Source: Sedimentisphaerales bacterium
GTDB lineage: Bacteria > Planctomycetota > Phycisphaerae > Sedimentisphaerales > Anaerobacaceae
Reading direction: 5' to 3'
Length of the DNA stretch: 64,000 bases
Assembly: GCA_963708075.1 (NCBI GenBank)
Contig: OY970194.1
Span: 7,232,001 to 7,296,000, forward strand
The notes beneath the pieces are model-generated. The model was not told where the DNA came from, did no database searches, and worked only from the letters and a program-made list of their open reading frames with translations. Position numbers and translations under genes: made by a program. This document shows, one piece after another, positions 16,800 through 24,723 of the stretch; within the stretch, counting starts at the first letter, position 1; each line of letters begins with the position of its first letter.

Positions 16800-18455
16800 C
16801 TACTGCCCGGCGGGAGCGGGTTTGACTACCATGATGTCATCGATGAACAGCTTGCCGGCACCGCCTGCGTTGGAGGCATTGCGGTCGCCAACACCGATGG
16901 ACAGCTTCTTGACCGCTGCCAGATTCACTCCGGTGAACCGGCTGAGCGGGATCCTCCACTGAGTCCACTTGGGAGCACTGACCGCAGCCGGATCGGCGTG
17001 AACGACGATGGCGACACGCTTGGATGCATCTTCAATTGCGACGGACAGCGGGGCCGGTGCATTAGCCGTCTTGCCTCTGAAGTAGAGGACGAGGTCGTTA
17101 ACATCATTGGATTTCCAGTCCTGTGCGGTGGCAAATTCTCGCTGGGCCTCGCTGTACCAGGGCTGGTTGATGTTGTTGTAGTCCATCGGCATGGCCTGCA
17201 GGCCGCTGTGGATAACGGATAACTCGGCGAACGGAGGCTCAGCATTCCCGACCGCAGCACCGGTGCCGTTGCCGAGATTGCCCGGCGGGGGCTCCGTGAA
17301 GCCCAGACCGTCAATCCAGGTCTGAAAGATGCGACTGCCGACGTCGTCCGTATAGCTCTCGAAATCATCGACGAGGATGCATGTGGTGAAGTTCCAGACC
17401 GGGCCGGGCTGGATCGTGTCGTCGACCAGGACCTCATCCACGCGCCAATAATAGGTGGTCAAACTGTCGAGGACTCCCGGGACGAAGTTCGGATCCTCCG
17501 GATTGATCTGGCCTTTGTCCGCCTCTGCCGTACCCTGGGCGACGGCATCACGGTTGTTGCTGAAGAAGATCTGGTGTCGCCAGGCATCCATCCCCGGCAA
17601 CCAGCGAAGGGTCGGGGCCGGCGAGGCCTCGTTCGAGCCATCCGCCGGGACGGGCCGATAGGCCGTCAAGGCCCGCATCATGAATGACCAGACGTCGCCG
17701 GCATGCGTTGTGACGCCGTCCTTTTCGATTTCATCTACGCGCCAATAGTAGGTCACACCCGGCGTCGCCATCGCAGGGAAATAGAAGAACTTGAGGTCAA
17801 ACTGGCGAGCCGACTTGAGATCTGCGGCCGTCAGATCCGGACTGGTGCCTATATACACGCTGTGGAACTTCGCGTCTTCCCCGGCCTTCCACGCCAATGT
17901 CGGCACGACCACATCAGCGGCGCCGTTGGCGGGACTCGGCAGGCGCGCCTGGAGAGGACGGACATAGGTTGTGGACAAGACATCCGCCGGGATGGCCTCC
18001 TGCTTGCCACCGGGCGGTGTCCAGTACAACTCGATGACGGCGTCGCCGCCACTTTCATAGAATTCCAGCCGCATGCCATATGTCTTGCCTGCCTCCAGCG
18101 GAATGGGTGAGCTGTTGTTCCATGAGGCGGAGTGATCGCCCCAGTTGTCGATGACCCACTCGCCGGACAGCAACAGGCGCACTCCGTCGTCGCTTCTCGT
18201 GGAGAATATGTAGTCGCCCGTGTCCGGGGCTGTGATGCTGCCGGTCCAGCGGACGCAGAAGTTGTCCACTCCCATTGCAGTATCAGGGGCATTGCCCGCC
18301 CAGTTGAAATTCACCGCCTCCGTGCGGGTCAGTACGGGCGTGCCGGTGAATTGCCTGCCTGTGAAGTACTCTCCCAACAGCCCCTGGGCATGCGTGGTCC
18401 CGAGGGGAAGGAGCCATAATACAATGAGGACCAGGAAATAGAGTCTCCGCGCCAT
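16800..18455 (-). CDS. Secreted PA14-domain protein with YYWRVDE modules and a C-terminal carbohydrate-binding-like domain
   Basis: AAGGAGG RBS, signal peptide, PA14 motifs (F.VRWTG, SDDGVRL, EFYE.GG), two YYWRVDE, VDDFESY...FIDDI. Confidence 0.85.
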   Translation of the reverse strand: MARRLYFLVLIVLWLLPLGTTHAQGLLGEYFTGRQFTGTPVLTRTEAVNFNWAGNAPDTAMGVDNFCVRWTGSITAPDTGDYIFSTRSDDGVRLLLSGEWVIDNWGDHSASWNNSSPIPLEAGKTYGMRLEFYESGGDAVIELYWTPPGGKQEAIPADVLSTTYVRPLQARLPSPANGAADVVVPTLAWKAGEDAKFHSVYIGTSPDLTAADLKSARQFDLKFFYFPAMATPGVTYYWRVDEIEKDGVTTHAGDVWSFMMRALTAYRPVPADGSNEASPAPTLRWLPGMDAWRHQIFFSNNRDAVAQGTAEADKGQINPEDPNFVPGVLDSLTTYYWRVDEVLVDDTIQPGPVWNFTTCILVDDFESYTDDVGSRIFQTWIDGLGFTEPPPGNLGNGTGAAVGNAEPPFAELSVIHSGLQAMPMDYNNINQPWYSEAQREFATAQDWKSNDVNDLVLYFRGKTANAPAPLSVAIEDASKRVAIVVHADPAAVSAPKWTQWRIPLSRFTGVNLAAVKKLSIGVGDRNASNAGGAGKLFIDDIMVVKPAPAGQ

Positions 18456-18758
18456 GGGATTCCTCCTTCAGAAGTGTCCAAGTTCGGTGTCCAGCCATAT
18501 GCTGGGGCGCTACCTCCCCGGCTCCGATGCAGAGATGGGGCCTGTGTATTGCCGAGCCGGGGCCAGTCTCACAATGAGACCGCAAAGATGATTGTCCGTG
18601 TGCCACAGGACTGGTAGGACAAGCAGTCCGTAGCCGGGCATCACCTCCTTTCTGCAGATACTGCCACGATGGCAAGAGTTCAGACTCCGTGGTCTCCCGG
18701 GCCTGCAGACTGACAAGCTTTCAAGCTTGCGGGCCACGATGTTTCCGGACAATCATCT

Positions 18759-18787
18759 TCTATAGCAGATTTCAGGGCAGGCGTCAA
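18759..18787 (-). promoter_or_regulatory. Putative sigma70 promoter of the PA14 gene (~300-nt leader)
   Basis: TTGACG-N17-TATAGA with TG extension. Confidence 0.45.
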
Positions 18788-21248: not shown

Positions 21249-24200
21249 TCACTTCTTAATCACACGGATGTCGTCGAAGATCAGCGTGCCGTGGCCATCC
21301 GGCTTGGGAGCGGTCCGATCGCCGACGCCGATGTACATCTTCTTGACAGCGCCCGTATTGACACCGGTGAACGCGCTGAGCGGAATTTCCCAGGCGGTCC
21401 AGACAGTGCTGAGCACGGCTTGCGGATCCGGATGTTTCACGATAGCCAGCTTCTTGGAGCTATCCTCGACAGCGACATAGAGCTGATCGAGGTCGTTGCC
21501 CGGATGGGTGATGCCGACGTCGGCCAGTGTCCATGCCCCGGTGACGTTGCCGGTTGTCGTGACATCCGAGAACACACCGATCGTGACGATCGTCGCACTG
21601 GTGTTGTGGCTGGTGACGCACAGACCAATGTCGACGGTGCTGCTCATGATCACATCGTGCGGGTTAAGCGTCGCATCGGTTCCCACGATAGTCCAGGTTT
21701 TGCCATCGGCCGACATCTCTCCCTTGAACGTGTTGCCCGTGCGGGTCAGACGGACCCAGTACGGAGCCACGAGGGCCCCGGTGCCGGTGTTGGCGCTGAC
21801 GTCGTCGCTGAGAGTGCGATGCTGGAAGGATACGCCGCTGGCCGCGGAGACCACAGTGGCCGCATTGGTCGCACCCGGTGCCAGCGTGTCACGAATCATC
21901 ACGCCCGCCTTAGCCCAGACGTCCGTCTGGACAATGCTATTGATCTTGGCGGTGATGGAGCCGTCGCCGGTGAGGGTTTTGAAAGCGAAGCGGAACTGGT
22001 CGGCGTTGTTCCAGATATCGTTGCCGGCGGCACTCATGGTGATCGTGGTGCCGTCATTGAGGAACCTGACCGGATAGCCCCGGAAGTAGAGCACCAGGGT
22101 GTTGACGCCGTTGACCTTCCAGTTCTGAGGCGAAGCCCAGGTCCGGTCGGTCTCCGGAGTAGTACGGCTGGACGATGTTGTTGAAATCGAACGGCACCGA
22201 CTGTCCGCTGCCGCCCGGATTGACGGTCGATGTTTCCATGATCGTCCCGTACGGCGTGCCGGTCGTCCAGATGTCGTGTCCGACCGTTGCGCCGCTTGCA
22301 TTGCCCGGATTGTCGGTGGAGAAGAAGTCGTCCGCCGAGAAGCCCCAGCCATCGATCCAGGTCTGGAACACGCGGCTCGGTGATTCATCGGTGTAGCTCT
22401 CGAAGTTGTCGACCACGAGGAAGTCGGCGGTCGTGAACTTCCAGACTGAGCCCTTCCACGGGCTGTCCGCACTGGCGGTATTGACTTCGTCCACTCTCCA
22501 GTAATAGGTTTTGTTCCACTCAAGAGCGCCGGGGGCAAAGGTGTTCTTGTCCAGCGCCTGGCTGCCCTGGTAGATGGCGGCGTCCGCGGTAGTGGCGGCT
22601 TCCACGGCCGCAGCGTCCTCACCGAAGTACACCTCATGAGTGACGGCGTTCTCGCCGCTGGACCACATCAGCGTTATGTCCTGCGGGACATTGGCGTCGC
22701 CGTTTCCTGGATTGGTCGGCTTGGCACGAACCGGAGGCTGCAGCGGACCGGCCGGGATGATCTGGCGAGCGATATTCGGGGTCTGCCAGGAGAACTGGGC
22801 CACGGCGCCAGCGCCGTTCTCGTAATACTCTACGACCAGTGCGTAGATGCCCGGTTCGAGATGTTGCGGGGCACTGAATGAGTCAGTCGTGCCTTGATCG
22901 ACCCAACGGTTGACGATTTGCACGTCATCGAGCCAGGCCCGAATGCCGTCATCGCTGGTGCCGATGAAGGTATAATCGTCGGCAATCGCGATCTCCAGGT
23001 CCGCCGTCCAGCGGGCCGAGAATTGATCCGTCACGCCGGCGGCCGGACCACTTCCATCAGGCCAATTGTGGTTGATTTCTGTCTCAATCTGGGTCAGGAA
23101 TGGAGCGCCCGAGGCAGCCATGTTGCGGAAGTACTCCGCCTTGACACCGCCGCCGGGGGTGTTGATGGTGAAGCTCCAGACTTCGCCTTCGTGCTTGACG
23201 TCGCTCGTGTCATACTCGTCCACGAGCCAGTAATAGACGGTGCCCGCCACCAGAGTAGGCAGGTCGAGCTGCGGGACCGGCAACTTGTCGCCCTTCTTGA
23301 CACTGGCGTCGCGACCGGCCACGGCGTTCTTGTCGGTGCTGAAGTATACGTCATGGGACGCAGCATTGGTTCCGGGCTGCCAGACCAAATCGCCATCCGG
23401 ATCGATCCACTTGTCGCCGTTGCGCGGTGTGGGGCCGAAGGCGGATAGCGGAGCAGCCACGAAACTCCAGACCTCGCCCTGGTGGATCGTGCCGCTGGAC
23501 TCGATTTCATCGACCCTCCAATAGTAGGTCGTGCCCGGGGTCAGCGGAACCATATGGAAGAACGTGGTCGATGTCTGACGGATGATCTTCGGCGGGTTCG
23601 GATCGGTTCCGAAATACACGTCGTGCGCTCCGGCTGTGACGCCCTTTGTCCACGACAGTATGGTTATCCCCGGCATCAGCACGCCCGTCGCGTTATTAGC
23701 CGGATTCGGTTCCCGGGCGTTGAACATCGGCTCCGGGTCCCGGATCCACGGGAACAGATACTTGCCGGCGATGAAGGTGGGGCTGGTGCCGATGCCCGGG
23801 CCGGCCCAGGCGACGCTCATGTGACCGCCGCCGGTGCCATCCGAGAACATGGCCTCGGTGTAATACCGCTTGCCCGCTTCCAGCTTGATGGGCGTCTTGG
23901 ACTTCTGATTGGCGCCGGGAACGCCCGTCGTGCCGGCGTAGTTCTGGTAGTCGGTCCAGCCTTCGACGCTGCAGATCAGCGTGATATTGCCCGGCTTGTC
24001 ATCGGTGCTCAGCCAGAACTCGCTGTAATCGTCGCTGGCGATCCAGAACGTGTAATCGCCTGTCTGGAGCGGCTGGATATATCCACGATAGCGCTCGCCC
24101 CAGTAATCGTTGGCCGAGAGGTCCGGCTGATCATAGTTGTCGTCCCAGAAACTCATCACTGGGTTGTCAGGATAGTTGGCGTTGTTCTTGAGAGTTGTGA

Positions 24201-24330
24201 GGTTGTCGCTTACTCCGCCGCCTACCCATCTTTCCACGAGAATGAAGCCCTTGCCCGGCTGGGCGATGGCGGGAGCCACCAGTCCCAGAATGACAAGAGC
24301 AATCACGAGAGAATGCAGTTTTTTACTCAT
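21249..24330 (-). CDS. Large secreted protein with two PA14 domains and YYWRVDE modules (frameshift at ~22155)
   Basis: Signal peptide, PA14 motifs ASDD and TSDDG, repeated HDVYFG/YYWRVDE. Removing one base restores PYYS-ETDRT and joins ORFs 22054..24330 and 21249..22637. Confidence 0.82.
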
Positions 24331-24694
24331 AATGTCCCTCCTTCAAAAGGGAACCATGCTACGCGTCCCGGCGCACGCCGGGAACCGAACGTTTCCCCAT
24401 TATCGACACGAAGACAAGGTGACTTGATCCTCCGTGCGGGGCAGTCTCCTATGGAGACGACGAAAGGTACTTCCATTGCTCAAAACATGGATGCGCAATT
24501 CGTCCCAGAGAGAGCACACCTCCTTTCTGTATCCACTCCTCTTGATATGCCAAGTCGAGATGTATGAAATACGTCTGTGGCGTCGAACGCCATTGCAGAG
24601 TCTCCTTCCTCCACATCACGTACTCCATCGTACGGATCGGATGACTGTACTTTGGGTCTTCGCAGGCCACACCCACGGTCCGGTTTCAACTTAA

Positions 24695-24723
24695 TTTATA
24701 TCACGGACGCATCTTCAGGTCAA
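24695..24723 (-). promoter_or_regulatory. Putative sigma70 promoter (~360-nt leader)
   Basis: TTGACC-N17-TATAAA with TG extension. Confidence 0.5.

Follow-up and report, generated by a model that had tools for sequence, protein, structure and literature searches.

What two untranslated leaders of roughly 300 nt contribute to the genes behind them is the question raised by a pair of paralogous PA14 genes in a 64 000 nt stretch of DNA from a Sedimentisphaerales bacterium (the window, by which we mean this stretch at its full length). A sequence-only reading of the locus had noted that both leaders carry an identical 13-mer (block 1) and, further downstream, a short hairpin with a C-rich flank (block 2), and had proposed that they represent a new cis-regulatory RNA. 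Pfam assigns both gene products to PA14, their best-aligned stretch shows 36% identity, and because both N-termini resemble signal peptides, the start codons assigned to the two genes are considered sound. The coordinates of the features discussed here are collected in Table 1. As an observation on gene 1 itself, the C-terminal ~380 aa of its product (residues ~166–550; 16800–17950, minus strand) form a module that has 37–70 matches in each genome of the genus, frequently as tandem gene arrays.

Table 1. Positions and sequences of the leader features and genes in the window; helices, pairings and promoters are predictions.
Feature	Position	Strand	Sequence and remarks
PA14 gene 1	16800–18455	minus	551 aa; signal-peptide-like N-terminus
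True ribosome-binding site, gene 1	18453–18477	minus	CU-rich ACACUUCU predicted to pair with AAGGAGG (18468–18462), P(paired) 0.9; ATG 18455–18453
P3 equivalent, leader 1	18491–18505	minus	CCAGC-AUAUG-GCUGG
9-bp helix, leader 1	18516–18562	minus	CCCCGGCUC / GAGCCGGGG; ties P2, at its 3′ flank, to a strand further downstream
Block 2, leader 1	18557–18582	minus	P2 CGGUCUCA-UUG-UGAGACUG (18582–18564), then GCCCCGG (18563–18557)
CU-rich tract, leader 1	18584–18592	minus	AUCAUCUUU; predicted partner of block 1; homologous leaders have a CU-rich tract at the same position
Block 1, leader 1	18640–18654	minus	13-mer CAGAAAGGAGGTG (18654–18642); AGAAAGGAGGUGAU (18653–18640) is an exact 14-nt complement of the 16S tail
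Promoter, leader 1 (predicted)	18759–18787	minus	TTGACG 18787–18782, 17-nt spacer, TATAGA 18764–18759
PA14 gene 2	22054–24330	minus	758 aa; signal-peptide-like N-terminus
P4, leader 2	24328–24351	minus	CCCUUU pairs with GGAGGG of the true SD, P(paired) 0.88; ATG 24330–24328
P3, leader 2	24366–24383	minus	UCCCGGC ... GCCGGGA
CU tract and block 2, leader 2	24437–24467	minus	CCUUUC 24467–24462; P2 GUCUCC-AUA-GGAGAC 24458–24444, then UGCCCCG
Block 1, leader 2	24517–24529	minus	13-mer CAGAAAGGAGGTG; 12-nt complement of the 16S tail; 188 nt 5′ of the ATG
Promoter, leader 2 (predicted)	24695–24723	minus	TTGACC 24723–24718, 17-nt spacer, TATAAA 24700–24695

Ahead of each leader the TTGAC-N17-TATA promoter that had been proposed could be read, and the arrangement CTTGACG-N17-TATAnA is kept in orthologous leaders, although a scan for consensus promoters called neither of the two because its rule demands a T at position 6. 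Transcription of leader 1 is predicted to start near 18752. In leaders 1 and 2 alike, exactly 188 nt separate the end of the block 1 GGAGG from the ATG (165–217 nt from block 1 to the true start across the leader family), and each ATG has its own AAGGAGG, which bears out the earlier statement that an extended complement of the 16S rRNA 3′ end lies far from the real start codon. The two leaders had been described as alike in the two blocks only, which proved too narrow, since they also have in common CGGACUGCUUG.. on the 3′ side of block 1, as well as P3 and P4, two hairpins described below. The perfect 14-nt inverted repeat of leader 1 (18585–18598 / 18746–18759) is real. It had been thought to reach the 5′ end of the RNA and to compete with other pairings, but given the position of the −10 element its 5′ arm reaches into the promoter; an RNA starting near 18752 would hold only about 7 nt of that arm, and the competing 14-bp pairing is confined to leader 1 and lies partly within the promoter.

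One sediment metatranscriptome includes a 297-nt contig that spans 18433–18730, nearly all of leader 1, at ~98% identity, in a type of data that shows no RNA ends, strand or level and in which DNA carry-over is possible. The contig differs from the leader by five substitutions and one deletion, and the four differences with positions (18607, 18627, 18685 and 18689) fall outside both blocks. The same metatranscriptome gives no cover of leader 2 or of most of the two coding regions, which is uninformative either way. Leader 1 forms a contig of its own, and there is hardly any cover of the gene 1 coding region; this gives a hint, and only a hint because contigs cannot rank abundance, of a leader RNA that might survive longer than the message.

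The most strongly conserved element of these leaders is accounted for by the tail of the 16S rRNA. The organism's own 16S rRNA gene ends in ...GGATCACCTCCTTTCT, and because of this end block 1 of leader 1 is an exact complement of 14 nt of the tail; the corresponding match is 12 nt in leader 2 and 11 nt in a third leader from the same genome. The identity of the 13-mer in the two leaders of the window was confirmed on the minus strand, and its two occurrences there compare with 0.00 expected from 100 shuffles. When 13 leaders from 10 genomes were aligned with MAFFT, GAAAGGAGG proved identical in all 13, between flanks that vary. Predicted duplex energies with the 16S tail, as medians over a set of 30 leaders, are −21.4 kcal/mol for block 1 and −12.6 kcal/mol for the true Shine–Dalgarno (SD) sequences. 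ATG, GTG or TTG follows the block 1 GGAGG by 4–12 nt in just four of the 30 and is absent at that distance in the other 26, and in leader 1 the sole AUG near block 1 is only 2 nt past the GGAGG. By this spacing, block 1 would direct no translation initiation.

Block 1 may also be engaged within the leader itself. For leader 1 the partition function pairs it with UCAUCUUU, 59 nt downstream, in agreement with the pairing to a downstream strand that the sequence-only reading had suggested. Thermodynamic folding of the 30 leaders gave no consistent intramolecular partner, the predicted partner being AUCAUCUUU in leader 1 and other tracts elsewhere. Block 1 is predicted to be paired with a probability of 0.5–0.9 in most leaders (range 0.02–0.94), with partners that differ between leaders.

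The complete 7.5-Mb genome holds a third copy of the two-block arrangement, outside the window, and a third PA14/LamG paralogue (822 aa) follows it at a distance of 292 nt. The sequence of this copy is CAGAAAGGAGGT, 68 nt, GTCTC-AGTAA-GAGAC-AG-CCCCCG, with a promoter TTGACA-N17-TATAAC. Ahead of a fourth paralogue, of 1189 aa, block 1 occurs at 170 nt and block 2 is lacking. The leader of the third copy (L042, G000:C1:6794090-6797251) also contains two REP-like palindromes, GGGGCGAATGrTGATTCGCCCG, one just 5′ of block 1 and the other near the true start, and a similar hairpin lies 5′ of the leader SD at genome position 5550145.

Orthologues were gathered by protein search of 23 other genomes of the genus. 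A script that accepted up to one mismatch to AAGGAGGT at 100–330 nt 5′ of the ATG located block 1 at 22 of 30 gene-2-type loci, and the covariance model added two; block 1 was not found at five of the 30, and one more locus is without a usable start. Four of 12 gene-1 orthologues carry block 1 (L010, L011, L013 and L014; 117–122 nt), and two more (L007 and L012) are doubtful. The synteny of genes 1 and 2 is retained in G004, G010, G014 and G016.

The sequence-only reading had recommended a covariance-model search. The model, R1, extends from block 1 through P2, the stem of block 2, and gave 11 hits in nine of 24 genus genomes, three of them in the organism's own genome. One further hit came from a 151-genome sample of the family, in another genus and before a PA14-domain gene. 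R1 hits precede PA14-type genes wherever checked. Within the genus R1 yielded no loci beyond those gathered by the protein search and from the own genome, in searches that scored only 26–150 first-look candidates per genome and may miss weak members. The strict bipartite pattern GAAAGGAGGTG-N40-70-GTCTC-N5-GAGAC, run against 41 relatives, matched the own genome only, and a relaxed block 2 pattern found in 301 genomes of the order the three own copies and one match in G082. The latter was set aside: it is intergenic, is without block 1 or a PA14 gene nearby, and compares with an estimated ~0.5 chance hits expected. Taken together, the comparisons support the view that the leaders form a conserved, strand-specific and structured family, probably cis-acting and tied to genes for PA14-type secreted proteins.

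Written as DNA, block 2 is GTCTCA-TTG-TGAGAC-TGGCCCCG in leader 1 (18580–18558) and GTCTCC-ATA-GGAGAC-TGCCCCG in leader 2 (24458–24437). Its position, the hairpin and the change from an A-U to a C-G pair had been described correctly; the spacing had not, because block 2 begins 60–63 nt after block 1 rather than ~50 nt. In orthologues the stems at this position differ in sequence (GCGGCUUC/GAGGUCGC and GCGGCGUU/GACGCCGC are examples), with a CU-rich tract on the 5′ side and GGCCCCGG on the 3′ side. An unfitted MAFFT alignment of seven sequences has 85.7% of P2 cells paired, compared with 39–57% in slid controls, and includes two pairs that change on both sides; from the same seven sequences RNAalifold predicts P2 as the only helix in its region. 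With 12 model-fitted sequences, an alignment that leans towards structure, 77.5% of cells are paired (34–56% when slid) and the covariation score exceeds those of all 500 shuffles. Many of the pairs are G-U, and for this reason P2 is better regarded as an RNA element than as a DNA palindrome.

Nearer the gene, RNAalifold predicts two more hairpins, P3 (GUGUG.CCGG/CCGG.CACAC) and P4, in which the true SD pairs with a CU tract just upstream. P3 and P4 together are 89.7% paired (32–58% in slid controls); P4 on its own is 91% paired and shows a CG to UA exchange that divides the sequences seven to four. A tract 19–27 nt before the ATG is the best partner of the true SD in 18 of 30 leaders, and in the three PA14 leaders of the own genome the true SD is predicted to be masked with a pairing probability of 0.88–0.95. 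Folds of whole leaders, with z-scores of −1.24 and −2.37, are uninformative alone. As judged from these alignments, P2, P3 and P4 are covarying RNA hairpins.

The whole genome was surveyed for sites outside rRNA with at least 12 nt of exact complementarity to the 16S tail, on the basis of our own crude set of 5424 gene calls. There are 18 such sites. Fifteen lie in same-strand leader space, 31–420 nt ahead of a gene; of the other three, two are genic and the third is a true ribosome-binding site. Of all strand positions 7.2% are leader space, which gives a binomial P of about 5e-15 for 15 of 18, and the reversed-sequence control has one site of 12 nt or more. Genes behind the leader sites encode mostly lectin-like secreted proteins (LamG_3, PA14, F5/8 type C, SdrD_B and DUF1349); a T4 gp19-like tube protein, a BON-domain protein and several proteins without a family account for others. 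Block 1 is therefore a genome-wide leader element and is not specific to PA14 genes. From one match to another, the extension along the tail goes one way or the other (AGAAAGGAGGTG or AAGGAGGTGATC), which fits selection for pairing with rRNA and not a fixed protein motif. The other longest tail complement in the genome, the 14-nt GAAAGGAGGTGATC, is at locus L035 (G000:C1:5228567-5229635), 98 nt ahead of the T4 gp19-like tail-tube gene.

Among the kinds of regulation that the sequence-only reading had offered, a ribosome-sensing or ribosome-binding leader fits block 1 best, whereas a riboswitch and an attenuator are unsupported. We give about an even chance to the reading that the PA14 leaders are a conserved, structured 5′ UTR family in which invariant block 1 is a start-less SD that docks a non-initiating 30S subunit. 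Precedents for this reading are the STAB-SD and the way in which RNase E scans RNA. The STAB-SD of Bacillus thuringiensis cry3A, as described in section 3.2 of PMC4113751, is an SD-like sequence located far inside the leader, where it fails to initiate translation but binds the 30S subunit and blocks RNase J1; the sources cited there are Agaisse and Lereclus (1996) and Mathy et al. (2007). RNase E is reported to move along RNA from its 5′ end and to be impeded by obstacles (PMC9943677 and PMC11194081).

By analogy, a docked 30S subunit would shield the ~300-nt untranslated leader from decay that depends on the 5′ end, as the STAB-SD does in Bacillus. The resemblance to cry3A lies in an SD-like sequence within a long 5′ UTR that is complementary to the 16S 3′ end, is more than 100 nt from a start codon with its own SD and, by prediction here, is itself a site of no initiation. 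The differences are a planctomycete host, a longer complement (12–14 nt), and a conserved leader, read here from sequence, with covarying hairpins and a masked true SD. RNase J, whose J1 form is what a STAB-SD blocks, was not found in the genome with either TIGR00649 or PF17770, and for this reason the nuclease blocked would differ from that of Bacillus. RNase E/G, RNase Y and two CPSF-like β-CASP proteins are encoded, and the 30S obstacle might act against RNase E/G or RNase Y, perhaps also against a CPSF-like β-CASP nuclease. The two CPSF/aCPSF1-like β-CASP genes, of 468 and 557 aa, are at L096 (G000:C1:2448650-2451841) and L097 (4085636-4088827).

In the PA14 leaders the docked 30S could also serve in standby, 188 nt upstream of the true ribosome-binding site that a hairpin masks, and P2 and the CU tract may set the accessibility of block 1. 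Ribosome standby, for which de Smit and van Duin proposed the model and which is treated by Sterk et al. (2018; PMC5934652), has in common with these leaders a true ribosome-binding site locked in a hairpin (here P4) and a possible landing site for the 30S upstream. The landing site in the PA14 leaders differs in being 188 nt away and an extended SD. A standby role for the class as a whole is not supported: masking of the true SD is no stronger in the 15 leader-SD genes than in 250 control genes (medians 0.51 and 0.62, P = 0.74). The standby sites known to us are unstructured tails or depend on S1 and are not extended SDs. The best reading of the comparison is that the STAB-SD is the closest precedent, with a role for block 1 as stabiliser, standby site or both.

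A bolder form of ribosome dependence, which we consider unlikely, would make the leader a ribosome-sensing switch, one of a widespread and undescribed group of 16S-tail decoys in long leaders outside Firmicutes, in organisms without RNase J. The very strong start-less SD on one side and the internal CU tract with P2 on the other would then compete for pairing, and the pool of free 30S subunits (or a ribosome terminating on the E-R-R-stop frame considered below) would set the opening of the masked true ribosome-binding site in genes for surface glycan-binding proteins.

Protein control by CsrA is a rather improbable alternative to 30S docking. Several GGA sites are typical of CsrA targets, with one of them overlapping the SD, and their usual place is a hairpin loop. 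A homodimer might bridge a high-affinity upstream site, either block 1 or another GGA motif, and the true SD, and thereby repress translation. Such a partner, CsrA or another protein, is possible because the genome encodes one csrA (89.9 bits, above the Pfam cut-off) and the leaders hold several purine motifs with GGA, namely GGAGGAAGG ~100 nt upstream of block 1, AGGAGGC between the two, block 1 itself and the true SD. These features are shared with CsrA-controlled leaders, but conservation here tracks the 16S tail exactly over 9–14 nt instead of a GGA core in loops. Matches that extend along the tail both ways include GGUGAUC, a sequence with no relation to the CsrA core; there is no consistent placement of block 1 in a hairpin loop, and neither FliW nor another partner is recognisable beside csrA.

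Docking of a free subunit has also to be set against the arrival of a translating ribosome. In 17 of the 30 leaders one frame has a stop codon right after AGG AGG (12 TGA, 3 TAA and 2 TAG), and an upstream ORF could end on block 1 as GAA AGG AGG (E-R-R-stop), with its stop at the UGA of GGAGGUGA, so that a terminating or pausing ribosome remodels P2 and the structure downstream. A TGA at this place is a free by-product of rRNA complementarity, whereas the three TAA and two TAG keep the stop despite lost complementarity. Four type-A leaders (own leader 2, G011, G018 and G023) have an SD and ATG exactly 66 nt upstream in the E-R-R-stop frame, but the ORF is present in only these four of 14 type-A leaders, is in another frame in G010 and is lacking in G014, G004 and G016. 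The frame in leader 1 is open for just 27 nt without an SD-preceded start; an upstream ORF with its own SD, as expected of a leader-peptide attenuator, is thus not conserved. The E-R-R-stop peptides are not conserved between genomes either, and those of own leader 2 and G023 read through, which leaves this explanation quite improbable. In leader 2 (24560–24625, minus strand), L055, L058 and L061, an SD-like GGAGGAAGGAG is located ~100 nt upstream of block 1 with an ATG at the spacing of a ribosome-binding site, and the frame that opens after it runs for 25–37 codons to or through block 1 (E-R-R-stop). A second upstream ORF at a UGAUG overlap in gene-1-type leaders was rejected, since a frameshift sets the close relatives G014 and G004 apart there.

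That the leaders are a ligand-sensing riboswitch or a transcription attenuator for the PA14 genes we regard as very improbable. A long conserved leader with covarying helices and an SD-masking hairpin, a possible expression platform, would suit such a function, but the best-kept element is accounted for by the 16S tail, the hairpins vary between orthologues, and the sequence between the helices is poorly conserved save for block 1, P3 and the true ribosome-binding site, with no conserved unpaired core seen. Neither leader has a terminator-like site. Rfam at gathering score gives only a tRNA in the window, and five leader loci have no match even at E ≤ 1, in keeping with the earlier impression that the leader belongs to no known family.

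Binding of a dimeric transcription factor to the GTCTC-N5-GAGAC palindrome as a roadblock, the DNA operator kept in reserve by the sequence-only reading, is hardly credible: the palindrome is exact in all three own-genome copies, but the orthologue stems covary and still pair, largely through G-U, which are mismatches in DNA, the flanks are asymmetric and strand-specific (CU tract 5′, GCCCCG 3′), and the site is ~175–330 nt downstream of the predicted transcription starts.

The preferred reading, that of a docked and non-initiating 30S subunit, also bears on how new these leaders are. The family is absent from Rfam, as the claim of novelty had it, and a seed alignment and model are provided for it; the start-less leader SD is already a known kind of element, and block 1 is not restricted to PA14 genes, so that less is new here than the claim had it. 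To our knowledge, start-less SD stabilisers are textbook matter in Bacillus alone, in connection with RNase J1. The STAB-SD literature, among the matches listed, is mostly on Bacillus with one Listeria review in addition, and in literature on STAB-SD and on planctomycete transcription starts and Shine–Dalgarno sequences we found no report of such elements in Planctomycetes. Block 1 is best filed as a STAB-SD-like, putatively start-less SD within a structured leader family at the level of the genus, in an organism for which RNase J was not found. An SD of this type is here invariant across a genus-wide leader family and enriched in one planctomycete genome, where at least 15 leaders carry it. 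If 30S docking is true, subunit shields or standby sites would be a general bacterial way to preserve and translate long leaders of secreted-protein genes, and would offer a handle on gene expression in anaerobic Planctomycetes, which are hard to study.

A repeated intergenic element, GCGTCTC-nGCGn-GAGAC with conserved flanks (..ctgcGTCTCTGCGTGAGACataattc..), was seen at a dozen or more sites of the own genome outside the window, among them G000:C1:3491347, 4915271, 5804254 and 6493813; it is unrelated to block 2 despite the GTCTC/GAGAC that the two have in common.
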